This document shows positions 8,297-62,882 of a stretch of DNA of 64,000 nt, one piece after another. Position numbers and translations under genes: made by a program. The notes under the pieces are model-generated. The model was not told the origin of the DNA, did no database searches, and saw only the letters and a program-made list of their open reading frames with translations. Positions within the stretch are counted from its first letter, which is position 1. Each line of letters opens with the position of its first letter. The DNA comes from an uncultured Thermoleophilia bacterium (GTDB lineage: Bacteria > Actinomycetota > Thermoleophilia > Gaiellales > Gaiellaceae): the NCBI GenBank assembly GCA_963755085.1, contig CAVWIN010000003.1:234290-298289 (forward strand), read 5' to 3'.

Positions 8297-11005
8297 CTAC
8301 TCCGGCGCGGGCTGCTCGGCGACCGGCTCAACCGGGGCGGCTGCGCCGGCCGGCTTGCGCTTGCGGTTGCGCCCGCCGCGCGTTCCCCGGCGGGTGCGCT
8401 TCTTGGGCTTCGGCTGCTCCTCGCCGTCGACCGCGGCCACCGCCTCGACGGCCTCTTCGGCCGTGACGGCGCCGTTCGCGGACCCGGCCTCACCGAGATC
8501 GTCGGGCGGCAGATGGATGCGCGCCGGCGCAAGCGCCGCCGGCTCCTCCGCAGGCGCCTCTGGCTCCTTCGCAGGCGCCGCCGGCTCCTCCGCGGCGTCA
8601 GCGGGCGCTTCGGCCGCCTCGGCCTCCGGCGCGCCGCCGTTCACGCTGGCCGCCGGCTTCTTGCGCCGGTTGCGACCGCCGCGTGTGCCGCGCCGCGTCT
8701 TCTTCTTGGGCGTCGTCCCCTCGGCCGCAGGCTGCTCACCGTCGACGATCGTCTCGGCGGCGACAGCCTCCTCGTCGGCCGGCTCCTCGTCGACAACGTC
8801 CTCGGCGACAACCTCCTCTTGCTCGGCGGCCACCGCATCCTCGACGACAGGCGACGCCACCGAGGCCTTCGCCGGCGTCCGGCGCCGCGAGCGCGTCGGC
8901 CGCTCGGCCTCGCTCTCCGCGGTGATCGGATCGTCGATGCGCGGCGCGGGCGAGAGCAGCGTTGCCCAGGCGACGCCGTTCATGACCCGCTCGAGCCGCG
9001 CCGTCACCTTCTTGCCGATCAGGTTCGAGCCGCCAGCGACGACGACCGCGAGGCCGTCCACCTTGCCGACGCCGGCGTGGGCGTCGTAGCGGCCGATCTC
9101 GACGAGCTTCAGACTGACGTCGGCGCCCTCGGCAACCGGGCCGGGCTCCGGCTCGGCCGTGGCGCCGTGCGCGAGCACCTCGAGGTGATCGTGCGGCACA
9201 TCGTCGCGGCCCTCGACCACGAAGCGGCGCTTCGTGACCTCCTCGAGCGCGGCCAGGCGCTGTGGCGCCGGGGCCGATCAGGACGCTCGCGACGTGCGCG
9301 TTCACCTCGACGCGGTACACCTTGCTGCGCGAGCCCTTGACCAGCGTGCGCAGCCGCTGCTCCAGCTCCACCGCCGCCGTCTGCTCCGAGACGACGATCC
9401 CGTCGCCGGCGCAGACCGGGCACTTCTTGGCGAGGATCTCGCGCGGCCCGTCGGTGACGTTCTGGCGCGTCATCTCGACCAGCCCGAGCGGGGAGATCTC
9501 GACCACGTAGGTCTTCGTCCGGTCGCGCTCGAGCTCCTGGCGCAGCGCCTCCTCGACGGTCGCCCGGTTCTTCGGGTTCGCCATGTCGATGAAGTCGATG
9601 ACGATGATCCCGCCGATGTCGCGCAGCCGCAGCTGGCGCACGACCTCCTTGACGGCCTCGATGTTGTTCTTCGTGATCGTGTCCTCGAGCGTCTGGGTCG
9701 ACGACTTCGAGCGCGACCCGACGAAGCGGCCGGTGTTCACGTCGATGACCGTGAACGCCTCCGCGTAGTCGAAGACCAGGTAGCCGCCCGAGGGCAGGTC
9801 GACCCGGCGCGAGAGCGTGGACTTGATCTCCCTGTCGACGCCGAACTCCTCCATCAGCGGGGTCTTGGAGCGGTGGCGCACGACGCGCTCGGCCATGTGC
9901 GGCGACGTCTTCTTCAGGTAGCCGACGATCCGCCGGTACGTCCGGTCGTCGTCGATCAGCGCCCGCTCGAAGTCTTCCGTGAACAGGTCGCGCGTGACGC
10001 GTAGCGGCAGCTCGGCCTCCTGGTAGACGAGCGCCGGCGCCTGCGCCGAGTTGGCCTGCGTCTCGATCGTCCTCCAGAGCCGCGTGAGGAACTCGAAATC
10101 GCGCTCGATGTCCTCGGCGGACGCGCCCTCGGCGGCCGTGCGGACGATGACGCCCCCCTTCTTCACGTCGAGCGACTTGAGGATGTCGCGCAGCCTCGTG
10201 CGCTCGTCGTCCTCCAGCCGGCGCGAGACGCCGAAGCCCTCGCCGCTCGGCACGTAGACGACGAAGCGGCCGGCGAGCGACACCTCGGTCGTCAGCCGTG
10301 CGCCCTTCGTCTTCATCGGGTCCTTGACCGCCTGGACGAGGATCGTCTGGCCGCGGCTCAGCAGGTCCTGGATGCGCTTGCCGTGGTGCCGTTTGCCCTC
10401 GAGCTCGGGGATGACGATCTCGTCGACGTAGAGGAAGCCGTTCTTCTCGAGGCCGATGTCGACGAACGCGGCCTCCATCCCGGGCAGCACGTTGTCGACG
10501 GTGCCCAGGTAGATGTTCCCGGCGATCGAGCGCCGGTCCGGGCGCTCGAGGTAGACCTCGGCGACCTTGTCGTCCTCGAGGACGGCGACGCGGCGCTCGG
10601 TGACGCCGGCCGAGACGAGCAGCTCGCGCTTCGCGGCCGGGAGCGGCGCCCGCTTGGTCTGCTGGCGGCGCCGGCTGCGCGACCGGGTGGTGCGGTCCTG
10701 CTTCTCGCGCCGCTCGCGCGCGGGCTTCTCGCGCGCTGGCTTCTTCTCGGGCTTCCTGGCGCCTCGCCGGTAGGCGACTCGGCGCTCTCCGCCTCGGCGG
10801 TCGCCGTGGCCGGCTTGCGCTTACGGTTGCGGCCCCCGCGCGTGCCGCGGCGGCGCGTCCGCTGCGCCGGTCCGTCGGTCGCGGCCTCTTCGGCCGCCTG
10901 GGGCTCGGGCTCGGGTGGTGCGTCAGCCGGTGGGGCCGGCTGCGTCAGTGCTTGCTGCTGTTCCTCTTCCTGCTTCTTGCGTCGTCGGAACCAGTTGAGT
11001 GGCAA
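8297..11005 (-). CDS. rne: RNase E/G family ribonuclease; reading frame interrupted twice (approx 10756-10762 and 9255-9262)
   Basis: The S1 and catalytic core (GNIYLGTVDNVLPGMEAAFVDIG...IDFIDM...) lies in the frame of 8736-10490. The N-terminus (TTG at 11005, GAAGGAG SD) and the C-terminus (RFVVEGRDDVPHDHLEVLAHG...) lie in another frame. The basic motif TRRGTRGGRNRKRKPA occurs three times. Confidence 0.8.
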
Positions 11006-11571: not shown

Positions 11572-12771
11572 CTACCAGAGGCGTGCGGGGCTTCTGAGGG
11601 GCCCGCGACCGCGCGCGTGGATGGCCTGGAGGATGCCGATCGCGATCAGGTTCATGATCAGCGACGACCCGCCGGCGCTCACGAACGGCAAGGGGATTCC
11701 GGTGACCGGGGCCATCCCGATCGTCATGCCGACGTTGACGACGATCTGGAAGAGCAGGCCGATGGCGATGCCCCCCGCGACGATCGCCGAGAACATGTCG
11801 CGCGCGACCGCGATCGTGTTCAGCGCCCGCCAGACGACGAGCAGGTAGAGCAGCAGCAGGATGGTCGCGCCGACGAAGCCGCGCTGCTCGGCGAGCGACG
11901 CGAAGACGAAGTCGGTCGCGTGCTCGGGGAGGTAGTCGAAGTTCGTCTGCGTCGAGCCGGAGACGCCGCGGCCGGTGGCTCCGCCGGAGCCGACGGCGAT
12001 CTGCGACTGCGTCACGTTGTAGGTCGCGCCGCTCGGATCCTGCGACGGGTTGGTGAACGACGTCAGGCGCTGCACCTGGTACGGCTTGAGGATGTCCACG
12101 CCGGCCGCGGGCGCCGCCCAGAGGACGCCGGTGCCGATGATCGCCGCGACCGCGAGCAGGACGCCGAGGTGGAGCCAGCGCGTCCCGGCCACGAACAAGA
12201 CCGAGCCGAGCACGGCGACGTAGACGAGCGCGCTGCCGACGTCAGGCTGCAGGAAGACGAGCGCGGTCGGGACGGCGGCGATGCCGATGGCGGTGACCGT
12301 CGTCCGCACCTCACCCACGCGCCTGCCGCGGTCGGCGAGGAACGCGGCGAGGCAGAGGACGAGCAGGAGCTTGCCGAACTCGGAGGGCTGGAACCGGAAG
12401 CTGCCGAGCGAGATCCAGCGCTGCGACCCGCGCGCGCTCACGCCGCCCGCGAGCACGAGCAGCAGCGAGCCGATCAGCGTGACGTAGATGACCATGCGCC
12501 GCCGCCGGTACACGTCCGGGTTCACGAACACCGCCAGGACGAGGCCGACGACGCCGACCACGGCGTAGACCATCTGGTGGCGGATGTAGTACCCCGGGTC
12601 GCCGGGAATGTCGTCGCGCGTGATCCCGTTCAGCAGCCAGAGGCCGTATGCGAGCAGCGCGGCGACGGCGCCGAGCATGAGCCAGTCGAGCCGGCGCAGC
12701 AGGTGGCCGATGTCGAGCACCGGCACGGTGCGGATGCCTGCGGACGGGCGGCCGACGCGGGAGTCGAGCAT
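11572..12771 (-). CDS. rodA: rod shape-determining SEDS protein RodA (FtsW/RodA family)
   Basis: This is a 399-aa polytopic SEDS-like sequence lying immediately downstream of mrdA. Confidence 0.9.
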   Translation of the reverse strand: MLDSRVGRPSAGIRTVPVLDIGHLLRRLDWLMLGAVAALLAYGLWLLNGITRDDIPGDPGYYIRHQMVYAVVGVVGLVLAVFVNPDVYRRRRMVIYVTLIGSLLLVLAGGVSARGSQRWISLGSFRFQPSEFGKLLLVLCLAAFLADRGRRVGEVRTTVTAIGIAAVPTALVFLQPDVGSALVYVAVLGSVLFVAGTRWLHLGVLLAVAAIIGTGVLWAAPAAGVDILKPYQVQRLTSFTNPSQDPSGATYNVTQSQIAVGSGGATGRGVSGSTQTNFDYLPEHATDFVFASLAEQRGFVGATILLLLYLLVVWRALNTIAVARDMFSAIVAGGIAIGLLFQIVVNVGMTIGMAPVTGIPLPFVSAGGSSLIMNLIAIGILQAIHARGRGPLRSPARLW

Positions 12772-14804
12772 CAGTCGTTCCTCTGGGTGGCCGTGGCGTC
12801 GCCACCCTGCTCGTGGAAGTACTCGCGGAAGATCTTGAGCGCCGCCGGCGCTGCGGCCTCGGCGCCGAAGCCGCCGTTCTCGATCACGACGCAGAGCGCG
12901 ATCGTCGGCACCTGCCCCTTGGTCGACGGCCCGTAGCCGCAGAACCAGGACTGGTCGAGCAGGCCGAGCCCCTGGACGTACTTCTGGGCCGTGCCGGTCT
13001 TCCCGCTGATCGCCGTCGGGAAGGTCGAGAACACCGCGCTCGCCGTCCCGGTGCCGCCGTGCGTGGCCCCGTAGAGGCCGGACTGGACGGCGTCGAGCAT
13101 CGAGGGGTCGACGTGTGCATCGACCGGCGGCGGGGACGAGTAGCGGCGGAGGACGAGCGGGCCGGTGCGTGAGGTCCCCGGCTCCTCGACCTGGTCGAGC
13201 AGGTGCGGGCGGATCAGCTTCCCGCCGTTTGCGATCATCGCGTAGAAGCGCGCCATCTGGAGCGGCGAGACCGTCAGGTCCTTCTGGCCGATCGCGAGCT
13301 GCACCGAGTCACCCGGCTTCCAGAGACTGTCGATTCGCCAGTTCGTCGGGTCGGTCTTCGCGGTGTAGGTCTGCTTGAACGTCTTCGGTGTCGCGAGCAG
13401 GCCGTTCGCCTCGCCGCCGATGTCGACGCCGGTCGGGCGGCCGAAGCCCCAGCGGCCCGCCCACTTCTGGAGCGGGCTTCCCTGAGCCAGGTAGAACTGC
13501 CAGCCCAGTTGGTAGAAGTACGTGTCGCAGGACTGCTCGAGTGCCTGCGGCAGCGTCAGCGGCCCCGATGCGGTGTGGTTCCAGTTGTTGAAGGTGGCGC
13601 CCAGGACCGGCTTGCCGGTGACCGGGTCCTTCAGCGGGACGGTCCACGAGGCCGTGCAGTCGAGCGGCGAGTACGGGTTGAGGATCCCTTCCTCCATCGC
13701 CGCGAGCGCCGTGACGGGCTTGAACGTCGACCCCGGCGGGTACTCGCCGGCGATCGCGCGGTTGACCATCGGGTAGTTGTCCGCCTGCGCGACGTTCGGG
13801 TTGGGCGACAGCAGCCGGTTCAGCTGCTTGTGCATGTTCGGGTTCACGAACGCGCCCGGCTGGAACCCGGGCTCCGAGGCGAGCGCGAGGATGTCGCCGT
13901 TCCGCGGGTCGATCGCGACCGCGGCGCCGCCGCGCGACCAGTAGTTGTGGTTCTTGAGGGCGAGGCCCTCGCCGTAGATGATCGCGTTCTGGGCCGCCTT
14001 CTGGAGCTTGGCGTCGAGCGTCAGGCGCACGGTGTCGCCGGGCGTCGGCGCCTGCGTGATCTGCAGGTCGCTGCGCGGGTGCCCGGCCGAGTCGAAGCGC
14101 GCCTGCGCGAGCCCGTCGGTGCCGCGCAGGTAGTGGTCGAACGCCGACTCCACCCCGCGCTGCCCGATCTGGTCGCCGAGGTGGTAGCCCTTGAGCGTCT
14201 TCAGCTGATCCTTGGTGATCTCGCCGACGTTGCCGAGGGTCTGGGGCGCGAGATCGCCCCAGGGATAGCGGCGCACCTGCGTCTCCTCGATCTTCACGCC
14301 CGGGAAGTCCGTCTGGCGCTCCGAGAGGAAGGTGATCACGTCCTCGGGGACGTTGTTCTTGATCGTGATCGGCGTCAGCGGGTCGAGCTTCTGCTGCTGG
14401 AGCTTCGACAGCACATCCTTGAGCGGGACGCCGAGCACGTGGGCCAGGCGCGTCATCTCGGCGTAGCGGCCCTTGTCGGGCAGGTTCGACGGCCAGATGC
14501 GGATCGACGTGACCGTGCGGTTGTCGACGAGCAGGCGCCCCTTGCGGTCGACGATCTGGCCGCGCGCGGCCTCGACGCGCACCTGGCGGAGCTGGTTGTC
14601 GCGCGCCGCGCGCAGGTAGTCCTCGCCGGAGAGCACCTGCAGCGCCCAGAGGCGCAGGAAGAGCAGTGCGAACGCGGCGAGCGCGAACGCGCCCAGGATC
14701 CCGATCCGGAACGCGAGCTGCGGCGTGAGCCGGTACGGCTCCTCGACGCGCGGGTCGCCGGGCAGGAAGGTGCGCGGCTTCGACCGGTAGCTGGTGCTAG
14801 CCAA
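12771..14804 (-). CDS. mrdA: penicillin-binding protein 2 (class B transpeptidase)
   Basis: It contains STFK and KTGTA motifs, and the mreBCD-mrdA-rodA order is conserved. Confidence 0.9.
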   Translation of the reverse strand: MASTSYRSKPRTFLPGDPRVEEPYRLTPQLAFRIGILGAFALAAFALLFLRLWALQVLSGEDYLRAARDNQLRQVRVEAARGQIVDRKGRLLVDNRTVTSIRIWPSNLPDKGRYAEMTRLAHVLGVPLKDVLSKLQQQKLDPLTPITIKNNVPEDVITFLSERQTDFPGVKIEETQVRRYPWGDLAPQTLGNVGEITKDQLKTLKGYHLGDQIGQRGVESAFDHYLRGTDGLAQARFDSAGHPRSDLQITQAPTPGDTVRLTLDAKLQKAAQNAIIYGEGLALKNHNYWSRGGAAVAIDPRNGDILALASEPGFQPGAFVNPNMHKQLNRLLSPNPNVAQADNYPMVNRAIAGEYPPGSTFKPVTALAAMEEGILNPYSPLDCTASWTVPLKDPVTGKPVLGATFNNWNHTASGPLTLPQALEQSCDTYFYQLGWQFYLAQGSPLQKWAGRWGFGRPTGVDIGGEANGLLATPKTFKQTYTAKTDPTNWRIDSLWKPGDSVQLAIGQKDLTVSPLQMARFYAMIANGGKLIRPHLLDQVEEPGTSRTGPLVLRRYSSPPPVDAHVDPSMLDAVQSGLYGATHGGTGTASAVFSTFPTAISGKTGTAQKYVQGLGLLDQSWFCGYGPSTKGQVPTIALCVVIENGGFGAEAAAPAALKIFREYFHEQGGDATATQRND

Positions 14805-61147: not shown

Positions 61148-62380
61148 ATGGCGACCCTTCCCCGTGGCACGGTGACCTTTCTCTTCAGCGACATCGAAGG
61201 ATCTACGCGGTTGCTGACGGATCTCGGACGCGCCTACGAGACGGTCCTCGACGACGAGCGGCGCCTCCTGGCCGAAACCGTCGAGGGCGTCGGCGGGCAC
61301 ATCGTTGACCGCGCCGGCGACGCCATCTTCGCGGTGTTCGAGCGGGCGCAGGACGCCATCGCCGCCGCCGTCGCCGCCCAGCGCGCCATCGCCGCCCACG
61401 CCTGGCCCGCAGGGGTCGAGCTGCGCCTGCGCATGGGGCTCCACTCGGGCGAGCCATTGGTCACCGGCGACGGCTTCGTCGGTCTCTCCGTGCACAAGGC
61501 GGCCCGGATCTGCGCGGCCGGCCATGGCGGCCAGGTGCTCATGTCGAGCACGACGCGGGAGCTGGCCGAGGACGGTCTCCCCGAAGATGTCGTCCTCCTG
61601 GACCTCGGCGATCACATGCTCAAGGACTTCGACCGGCCGGAGCGGCTCACCCAGGTCGTGATCGGATCGCTCCAGGCGGTGCTCCAGCCGATCCGAACGG
61701 TGGACGCACAGCCGGAGGAGACGCCGTTCGCCGGCCAGGAGGAGGAGCTCGCCGTGGCGTCTCAGGCCGCGATCGCGACCGACGCTCCGCCCGTGCCGGC
61801 ACCGGCCGCGCCGGGAGGGCACCAGCTGGTCGACCGGCTGATGGGCTGGCGGGAGACCCGCTCGAGCCGGAGCCGCCGCGGCCAGCGCTCGGCAATGGAG
61901 GCGGCCGGCATGCGCTTGTACGCATCCTCGCGCATCGCGCCGAGCGACGAGCTGCGGACGCAGATGGGGAAGCTCGGCGGGGCGGTCGCCAAGCTGGCCC
62001 GGATCGTAAGTGAGTGCGACAAGCTCCTGGCCGACTGCGACCGCAAGGCGCTGTCACGCGGGCTTGCGGACTCGTACGACGCGCCGGTCTCGGAGCGCGC
62101 TGTGAAGGCGGCTGGGCTGTTGACGCGTCAGATCGAGGCCGTCGACGTGCTCGCCGAGCGCCTGCGCGAGTTCGATCGCGCGAGCCGGAAACTGGAGCCT
62201 CGCCTTGCCGCCCTCTCCGATCGGGCCTTCCAGGCGCGCGTGGATCACTCCGTTCCTCCCGAACTGGCCGAAGACGTGAAGGAGCTGCTCGAGCAGATCG
62301 AGCTGCTCGATGGGAGCCTCGGCGAGGCGCGGGAGACGGTCGCCGCCTTCAGCCGCGGTCCCAGCCTCGGCAGGGCGTGA
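61148..62380 (+). CDS. adenylate/guanylate cyclase-domain protein with helical C-terminal region
   Basis: GTVTFLFSDIEGST, GDAIFAVF, RMGLHSGE and VHKAARI are class III cyclase motifs. I cannot assign the C-terminal ~200 aa. Confidence 0.75.
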   Translation: MATLPRGTVTFLFSDIEGSTRLLTDLGRAYETVLDDERRLLAETVEGVGGHIVDRAGDAIFAVFERAQDAIAAAVAAQRAIAAHAWPAGVELRLRMGLHSGEPLVTGDGFVGLSVHKAARICAAGHGGQVLMSSTTRELAEDGLPEDVVLLDLGDHMLKDFDRPERLTQVVIGSLQAVLQPIRTVDAQPEETPFAGQEEELAVASQAAIATDAPPVPAPAAPGGHQLVDRLMGWRETRSSRSRRGQRSAMEAAGMRLYASSRIAPSDELRTQMGKLGGAVAKLARIVSECDKLLADCDRKALSRGLADSYDAPVSERAVKAAGLLTRQIEAVDVLAERLREFDRASRKLEPRLAALSDRAFQARVDHSVPPELAEDVKELLEQIELLDGSLGEARETVAAFSRGPSLGRA

Positions 62381-62417: not shown

Positions 62418-62882
62418 GTGCTCCAGGCCGGCGACCACATCCCGCACGTCACCGTCTGGGCGGGCACGCGCGAGCAGGTGACGCTCCGGAAGCTCGCCGA
62501 AGATGGCCCGCTGCTCCTCTTCTTCTACCTCTTCGACTGGTCGTCGACCTGAACGCACGAGCTGGAGCTCCTGCGTGACAGGAGCGCGGACTTCACCGAG
62601 GCGGGCGTGCGGCGGTTCGGGATCTCGCGCGATTCCCCGTGGACGCACATCGCCTGGCAGCAGGTGCTCGACGTCGACTTCCCGCTGCTCTCGGACTTCA
62701 ACGGCGACGCGACGCACGGGTTCGGTGTCGCCTTCGACTACCGCGGCCTGCGCGACGTGTCCGAGCGCACCGCATTCCTGATCGACCAGGGCGGTACGGT
62801 CCGCGGCGCATGGCGCTACGAGTCGAGCGAGGTGCCCGACGTGGACGTGCTCCTCTCGGCGGCGCGGGCTTTGCCGGACTAG
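62418..62882 (+). CDS. AhpE-like 1-Cys peroxiredoxin with in-frame TGA (62550-62552) at the peroxidatic position; candidate selenoprotein
   Basis: A single frame reads LLLFFYLFDWSST-TGA-THELELLRDRSADF...FPLLSDFNG...RTAFLIDQGGTVR. This aligns, from memory, with M. tuberculosis AhpE (FFPLAFTGICQGELDQLRD...FPLLSDF), with the TGA opposite Cys45. Confidence 0.65.
62567..62585 (+). promoter_or_regulatory. candidate bacterial SECIS hairpin
   Basis: GCTCCTG-cgtga-CAGGAGC is a perfect 7-bp stem with a GU-containing loop that begins 24 nt after the U of the TGA. An alternative hairpin lies at 62553-62576. Confidence 0.4.

Follow-up and report, generated by a model that had tools for sequence, protein, structure and literature searches.

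A predicted selenocysteine peroxiredoxin with a conserved downstream hairpin in soil Gaiellaceae and related Thermoleophilia

Peroxiredoxins that carry selenocysteine (Sec) in a T/SxxU motif (defined in PMC1794560) are an established family of bacterial selenoproteins (PMC1088965, PMC1794560, PMC13188914), of which PrxU of Eubacterium acidaminophilum was the first biochemical case (Söhling et al. 2001, as cited in PMC13188914). The subject of this report is a peroxiredoxin gene with an in-frame UGA, located at 62418-62882 on the + strand of a 64,000-nt stretch of DNA (71% GC; "the window" hereafter means this whole stretch) from an uncultured Thermoleophilia bacterium of the Gaiellaceae (contig CAVWIN010000003.1). 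An earlier reading of the bare sequence, the original prediction, had proposed that this UGA encodes Sec, while pointing out that such an enzyme class would not be new, a point confirmed by the three papers cited above. Comparison with related sequences now suggests, with a probability that we put at about 0.86, that the locus is a true Sec-peroxiredoxin gene whose selenocysteine insertion sequence (SECIS) is functional. The mechanism and the enzyme class are already known, and what is new is the lineage (Gaiellaceae and related Thermoleophilia), a short, Cys-free BCP/AhpE-like subfamily outside the curated equivalogs, the near-universal presence of this form among these bacteria and a minimal SECIS that is conserved to an extreme degree. 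Literature searches in full text brought up no publication that connects selenoproteins with Gaiella, Gaiellales or Thermoleophilia.

The locus resembles the Sec-peroxiredoxin family (COG1225/PF00578) in its fold, its domain, the proposed use of Sec for the peroxidatic Cys in T/SxxU, a SECIS-like element 3' of the UGA and the existence of Cys orthologues. It differs from PrxU in that the window protein scores below the cut-off of the PrxU equivalog (NF040737; 38.1 bits vs 270) and is short, Cys-free and BCP/AhpE-like, and the Gaiellaceae form is set further apart by its actinobacterial soil host, its family-wide spread and the near-invariant 15-nt core of its candidate SECIS. Like the SECIS of the E. 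coli fdhF type, the hairpin in the window lies directly after the UGA within coding sequence, has a small loop with G-U and is under synonymous constraint, but its stem is shorter and simpler (5-7 bp, with a 5-nt loop), it has no bulged U, and its binding by SelB is putative. The features of the gene are as follows.

62418-62882, + strand: complete gene for a predicted selenoprotein, an AhpC/TSA (BCP/AhpE-like) peroxiredoxin; 154 codons, GTG start, TAG stop and one internal UGA
62418-62549, + strand: N-terminal 44 codons, ending in the conserved FYLFDWSST; called as a separate 44-aa open reading frame (ORF), the motif being kept in 114 unique orthologues
62541-62543, + strand: Ser42, the T/S of the T/SxxU active-site motif, at -3 from the proposed Sec; the column is 96% Ser
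62550-62552, + strand: UGA, proposed Sec codon (U45), in the peroxidatic-Cys column; the codon reads TGA in 123 orthologues and is TGC in Cys forms; aligned with the peroxidatic Cys (CP) of 2cx3
62553-62882, + strand: C-terminal 109 codons and stop; annotated alone in relatives as a 98-106-aa 'peroxiredoxin' fragment
62567-62585, + strand: SECIS-like hairpin; stem 62567-62573 / 62579-62585, loop CGUGA at 62574-62578 with G-U at loop positions 2-3
62568-62582, + strand: 15-nt core CTCCTGCGTGACAGG, which encodes LLRDR (codons +6 to +10) and shows no synonymous variation
62766-62768, + strand: Arg117, conserved catalytic Arg in the motif ERxAFLID; aligned to the Arg of 3hjp and 2cx3 and invariant in the orthologue alignment

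The GTG at 62418 and the called ORF at 62607-62882 had been said to share a frame in which the TGA at 62550-62552 is the sole intervening stop, and read-through had been said to give a full-length AhpC/TSA peroxiredoxin. Both statements stand, as translation of the frame gives 154 sense codons closed by the TAG at 62880-62882, and residues 5-129, a stretch that includes the TGA, match the Pfam AhpC-TSA domain (PF00578; E = 1.9e-23, 83.2 bits against a gathering cut-off of 26). The GTG coincides in position with the starts of orthologues (V/MLQAGD...), the sequence around the TGA reads FYLFDWSST-(TGA)-THELELLRDR, and the first start codon after the TGA in the window lies at 62607, 19 codons downstream. 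A scan based on GC content at third codon positions (GC3) identified this TGA as the only one in the 64 kb that is in frame and flanked on both sides by high-GC3 coding sequence. When the in-frame TGA/GC3 scan was applied to 48 loci from relatives in search of further selenoproteins, the candidates outside the peroxiredoxin gene resembled gene boundaries or noise. Neither a sigma-70-type promoter nor an intrinsic terminator was found around the peroxiredoxin gene.

The placement of the TGA at the peroxidatic-Cys position, also part of the original prediction, agrees with alignments to the Cys of solved BCP peroxiredoxins and to full-length orthologues. In phmmer comparisons with solved peroxiredoxins the TGA column coincides with the peroxidatic Cys, for example in FSPVCTKEL of Aeropyrum pernix BCP (2cx3), the (T/S)xxC-type motif is present as S42-S-T-U45, and Arg117 is aligned with the catalytic Arg. 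The nearest solved structures by sequence are Sulfolobus Bcp4, A. pernix BCP/PrxQ, and M. tuberculosis BcpB and AhpE. For comparison of the fold, an AlphaFold model of a Cys orthologue was used (P0011, 66% identical to the window protein; predicted local distance difference test score, pLDDT, 91), which reaches template modelling (TM) scores of 0.90 to Sulfolobus Bcp4 (3hjp) and 0.85 to M. tuberculosis AhpE (1xxu), and in which residue 45 falls within the opening turn of helix 43-54, where the peroxidatic residue canonically lies. Judged from this model of a Cys relative, the protein is predicted to have the thioredoxin-like peroxiredoxin fold.

The label 'AhpE', given to the protein at first, is an approximation. 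In its favour, the product has no Cys besides the Sec position and aligns over its full length with M. tuberculosis AhpE (1xxu, 1xvw; 153 aa; E = 2e-12), which is similar in length, likewise actinobacterial, and likewise has a single redox residue and no resolving Cys. However, AhpE has Cys instead of Sec and is only ~32% identical, and archaeal BCP/PrxQ proteins score equally well or slightly better. The active-site motif of AhpE is PLAFTGIC, as against FYLFDWSSTU in the window protein. The BCP/PrxQ group (Bcp4 3hjp; Aeropyrum pernix 2cx3; E. coli Bcp, NF006960) provides the best sequence and structure matches, with the catalytic Cys column and Arg aligned, but the window protein differs in the proposed Sec at CP, in the lack of a resolving Cys five residues after CP and in a score below the Bcp cut-off. 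No NCBIfam equivalog is reached, the best being Bcp itself with 52.2 bits against a cut-off of 140. The window protein contains zero cysteines, and 102 of the 114 TGA forms are likewise Cys-free in the 141 codons examined. Because it is a protein without any cysteine, the enzyme would, judging from its sequence, be a '1-Sec' peroxiredoxin of BCP/AhpE type.

The distribution of the TGA among relatives is the first line of evidence for decoding. A species scan with one genome per GTDB species recovered 46 loci from metagenome-assembled genomes (MAGs) labelled Thermoleophilia, Gaiellales, Gaiellaceae or unclassified Actinomycetota, drawn from megahit, SPAdes and long-read assemblies, and all 46 have TGA at the Sec codon while the proteins range from 56 to 94% amino acid identity to the window protein. 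A scan of Joint Genome Institute (JGI) metagenomes seeded with Cys-form proteins yielded 542 confirmed relatives, and among the best 80, which are environmental and mostly from soil, 74 have TGA and six have TGC. With all orthologous genes pooled, 123 TGA genes (118 unique) stand beside nine distinct TGC genes, which is the Cys/Sec (TGC/TGA) alternation at one alignment column that the original prediction had proposed looking for. A 141-codon segment could be extracted in 114 unique versions, in which the TGA is the sole stop and there are zero frameshifts; the truncation that had been named as a possible refutation occurs in none of these segments, the frame being open on both sides of the TGA in 114 of 114. 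Across these segments the ratio of non-synonymous to synonymous proportional differences (pN/pS) is 0.56 upstream of the TGA and 0.47 downstream, and the nine residues preceding the TGA are nearly invariant. Codon choice next to the UGA is also strongly biased: 93% of sequences have ACC as the preceding codon and 96% have ACG as the following one. An A therefore always comes after the UGA, and the sequence context may in this way influence recoding versus termination.

Protein searches return two classes of relatives. The first consists of full-length proteins of 145-177 aa with at most 72% identity, nearly all of which, among those fetched, have Cys at the Sec column (the exceptions are W in four and R in one). 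The second consists of proteins with 78-98% identity that are only 98-106 aa long and begin just past the TGA position, the 104-106-aa proteins starting four codons past it and those of 98 aa slightly later, by a few codons. On the contigs of close relatives the gene calls give a 44-aa ORF and then a 106-aa ORF, and the closest relatives therefore share the same interruption. The predicted mis-annotation as two fragments is thus what gene callers produce (44-aa and 98-106-aa pieces), and JGI calls go as far as W for the TGA, at the Sec column of the products P0022, P0050, P0053 and P0058. For P0050 the DNA (L134, JGI 3300081784, 152-610) has TGA and its table-11 translation disagrees with the called product, and the W comes from the gene call, an alternative genetic code having apparently been applied to this short contig; by analogy, the same cause is assumed for the other three.

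The second line of evidence is the hairpin. The 7-bp structure claimed at 62567-62585, 14 nt past the TGA, is present, with arms GCUCCUG and CAGGAGC around the loop CGUGA (dG = -10.8 kcal/mol), and the suggestion that it suits a bacterial SECIS is borne out by zero synonymous variation, by linkage to the TGA, by decay or absence in TGC forms and by compensatory changes in the stem. Codons +6 to +10 (CTC CTG CGT GAC AGG) have a third-position entropy of 0.00 bits in the 114 unique sequences; elsewhere in the gene, codons for Leu, Ser, Ala, Gly and Val reach ~1.0-1.5 bits, with 3-6 synonymous codons each. Synonymous divergence (pS) is 0.12 in codons +1 to +12 vs 0.43-0.44 in both flanks, and codon +11 is either AGC (Ser) or AGA (Arg), so that the AG nucleotides are kept while the amino acid differs. 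The exact 15-mer occurs once per locus, 18 nt after the TGA, in 115 loci, and is unique in the window. A search for it beyond the peroxiredoxin genes found a single extra occurrence, in a truncated peroxiredoxin copy on L106 (Ga0184618_10012822, 1030-1372). This second copy lies ~790 nt downstream of the first, is 5'-truncated so that it starts at WSST-TGA, preceded by AT-richer sequence, and has the SECIS 15-mer and the C-terminal part intact.

The core is tied to the TGA and decays with its loss. The Arg codon at +8 is CGT in 118 of 118 TGA forms vs one of nine distinct TGC forms (nominal Fisher p = 7e-12, which overstates the evidence, the sequences being related), and the Arg codon at +10 is AGG in 114 of 118 TGA forms vs two of nine TGC forms. 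Six distant TGC genes have CGC at +8 and, in five of them, CGG or CGC at +10 (GCT is also seen), and they form no hairpin (dG -1 to -6 kcal/mol). The nearest Cys forms, which share the FYLFDW motif (L129-L133), keep hairpin remnants: in L130-L132 the stem is kept but the loop U has become C, L129 combines the same loop change with a stem mismatch, and L133 keeps CGT but has lost the 3' arm. Such decayed hairpins in close Cys forms are the pattern expected if Sec-to-Cys conversion frees a SECIS from selection.

Changes within the stem are compensated (positions counted from the U of the UGA). C22-G32 is replaced by U-A in L006 and L007, at the price of an AGG-to-AAG change from Arg to Lys, U20-A34 is replaced by G-C in L135, the basal pair 18-36 alternates between G-C, C-G and U-A, and L045 and L046 retain the helix with a bulged A. 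Across 42 diverse sequences, 91.5% of cells are paired, three of the seven pairs show double-sided changes, and C25, G26, U27 and G28 of the loop are invariant. The observed covariation was reached by none of 500 shuffles, slid registers pair at only 32-58%, and RNAalifold independently predicts a 5-bp core with the CGUGA loop. The hairpin also agrees with published descriptions of bacterial SECIS elements, being a stem-loop immediately 3' of the UGA within the ORF (PMC9312934) with a small apical loop that contains a conserved guanosine (PMC1088965), and it displays all of the marks of selection looked for in a SECIS, namely covariation, synonymous constraint and loss in Cys homologues.

On the Sec reading, the gene would encode a full-length peroxiredoxin of 154 residues in which the peroxidatic residue is selenocysteine. 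The UGA at 62550 would be recoded during translation, the hairpin 14 nt downstream (a stem of 6-7 bp with the 5-nt loop CGUGA) acting as a bacterial SECIS that brings SelB·GTP·Sec-tRNA(Sec) to the ribosome, where it competes with RF2. The selenolate would then reduce peroxide and be converted to selenenic acid; lacking a resolving Cys, the enzyme would depend on an outside thiol partner to recycle it ('1-Sec', like 1-Cys AhpE/BCP). SelB/tRNA-Sec decoding, selenium content, peroxidase chemistry and the reductant are what we infer, the chemistry by analogy with the family. The strongest argument is evolutionary: a stop codon in the catalytic site, accompanied by an RNA hairpin of its own, has persisted while a whole bacterial family diverged, which is understandable only if the UGA is decoded.

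Five observations weigh against this reading. Firstly, the hairpin in the window alone is no more stable than shuffled sequence of 71% GC (z = -0.33, 61 nt), and its significance therefore comes only from comparison with relatives. Secondly, no Rfam family matches the hairpin region. Thirdly, the loop G-U lies at +26/+27 from the U of the UGA, while that of fdhF is at +23/+24, 3 nt nearer the UGA. Fourthly, two relatives have an Arg codon (CGA or AGA) instead of TGA. Lastly, selA, selB, selD and tRNA-Sec were not found in ~1.14 Mb (the window and the fetched loci), although this sample consists of small neighbourhoods of the same peroxiredoxin gene and represents absence of data, not evidence of absence.

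The two relatives with Arg codons have peculiarities of their own. In the long-read contig L002 (ENA ERZ25039581 contig_28689; 8679-10297 and 12386-14609) the beta-propeller and peroxiredoxin genes are doubled in inverted orientation, with a sigma-factor gene called beside one copy only; one peroxiredoxin copy has TGA and an N-terminal frameshift, and the other is intact with CGA (Arg) at the Sec codon. A chimeric assembly that joins two strains, a true inverted duplication or a T-to-C error may lie behind this. In L135 (JGI 3300044722, a 944-nt contig, 151-615) AGA (Arg) replaces TGA and FVW replaces FDW, with the hairpin kept by the compensatory change from U-A to G-C, and the AGA may reflect recent inactivation by mutation or an error at low coverage.

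As regards the machinery, tRNA-Sec was detected neither by ARAGORN and Rfam in the window and 48 loci nor by ARAGORN on 128 loci, and tblastn with E. coli SelA, SelB and SelD sequences gave no match in the ~1.14 Mb, a result that is uninformative because this sample covers peroxiredoxin neighbourhoods only. The window contains seven tRNA genes (Ala, Leu, Arg x2, His, Gly and Pro), all on the minus strand between 4562 and 45010, and none is tRNA-Sec. In the supplement of PMC5029168, the Thermoleophilia isolates Solirubrobacter soli, Solirubrobacter sp. URHD0082, Patulibacter americanus and Conexibacter woesei Iso977N are listed with 1-5 selenoproteins, as is Rubrobacter xylanophilus, and the Solirubrobacter, Patulibacter, Conexibacter and Rubrobacter entries are all marked '+' in the first three gene columns. 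By analogy, the Sec trait in cultured Thermoleophilia lends indirect support to Sec decoding here, and we infer that the Gaiellaceae host has the Sec machinery. The three columns are taken by us to be SelD, SelA and SelB.

Some other readings also retain the recoding of the UGA. A rather doubtful variant would make the peroxiredoxin the principal, perhaps the only, selenoprotein of the Gaiellaceae, a soil family abundant worldwide, for which the whole Sec apparatus is maintained, or else would have the hairpin drive a non-canonical recoding without the standard Sec pathway, which may take the form of, for example, SelB-like delivery of a Cys-charged UCA tRNA. It is improbable that the UGA is recoded with a residue other than Sec, either by hairpin-stimulated near-cognate read-through (Trp or Cys) or by a SelB-dependent Cys-charged tRNA with a UCA anticodon. 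Such tRNAs have reportedly been proposed in some bacteria by Mukai and colleagues, and the Sec machinery is not seen in the peroxiredoxin neighbourhoods. However, the enzyme would lose its activity with Trp or Arg in place of the peroxidatic residue, Cys is reachable by one mutation (to TGC) and is used by sister clades that lack the hairpin, and the Sec trait occurs in the same class (PMC5029168, supplement).

A pseudogene or truly split gene, in which a 44-aa peptide ends at the UGA and the downstream part is dead or separately expressed, is very unlikely. Gene callers do annotate 44-aa and 98-106-aa pieces, and some relatives have an ATG or TTG four codons past the TGA. However, the 114 unique sequences lack a second stop or frameshift, and a pseudogene is excluded by these segments being open throughout save for the TGA. 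The active-site motif, which runs up to the TGA, hardly varies, a start at 62607 in the window would remove the catalytic helix and leave a C-terminal fragment without the catalytic residue, and the conserved hairpin tied to the TGA argues against a split gene.

That the true codon is TGC, miscalled by a C-to-A error in an error-prone long-read assembly, is scarcely credible: related long-read contigs do err (the N-terminal frameshift and the CGA of the second copy in L002), but TGA recurs in 123 orthologues, assembled independently from Illumina data (megahit, SPAdes, JGI) and from long reads, whose nucleotide divergence excludes a shared artefact, and this recurrence refutes sequencing error. 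The chance of a genome-wide reassignment of TGA (genetic code 4 or 25), which the four JGI calls with W would imply, is equally negligible, since the DNA behind P0050 has TGA and mismatches its called product under table 11, and since reassignment is refuted for the window by stop usage, with TGA ending 17 of 43 likely genes, including the upstream neighbour (62378-62380), and by there being a single in-frame coding TGA in the 64 kb. The 43 likely coding ORFs of the window end in TAG (23), TGA (17) or TAA (3). TGA is usually the dominant stop in high-GC Actinobacteria, and TAG-first usage seems unusual for a 71%-GC genome, although frameshift-broken genes could distort the count.

The gene order on related contigs with the Sec form is an ECF-type (extracytoplasmic function) sigma factor, a beta-propeller protein, the peroxiredoxin and a membrane protein, which in the window resembles GT87. 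In L001 and L002, genes for thioredoxin and glutaredoxin are found at a distance of a few kb from the peroxiredoxin gene. Between the beta-propeller gene and the peroxiredoxin gene the window has a 410-aa gene with a weak adenylate/guanylate-cyclase domain (61148-62380, +), which is missing from that position in L001 and a JGI contig, and of which an identical copy is found on the short-read Logan contig ERR11748452. The FYLFDW-type Cys forms of L129-L132 (1399-2987) have a different setting, directly downstream of RidA-like and GCS2 (glutamate-cysteine-ligase family 2) genes and not beside the ECF sigma/beta-propeller pair typical of Sec forms; a GCS2 gene is also near the peroxiredoxin gene in L002.

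The findings bear on annotation, enzymology and the biology of SECIS elements. In the short metagenome contigs, MAGs and protein catalogues examined, the gene is stored as fragments or with a false W, and the real enzyme is therefore invisible to functional surveys. With one Sec and no Cys, the protein would be a simple system for comparing selenium and sulfur chemistry. The 15-nt core is invariant across proteins that are only 56% identical, close Cys forms appear to hold 'fossil' versions of it, and the Sec/Cys series could be used to define a minimal actinobacterial SECIS and to date Sec-to-Cys conversions.

For the ecology of the lineage, the TGA form dominates over the Cys form in soil Gaiellaceae/Thermoleophilia (all 46 species genomes recovered; 74 among the 80 best metagenome matches), and a selenium-dependent peroxidase may therefore belong to the standard means by which a widespread soil lineage counters oxidative stress. 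In earlier surveys, by contrast, the Sec trait was found to favour anaerobic conditions (PMC1794560). If the peroxiredoxin were indeed the principal or sole selenoprotein of the Gaiellaceae, the fitness of a dominant soil lineage under oxidative stress would be linked to the supply of selenium in soil.

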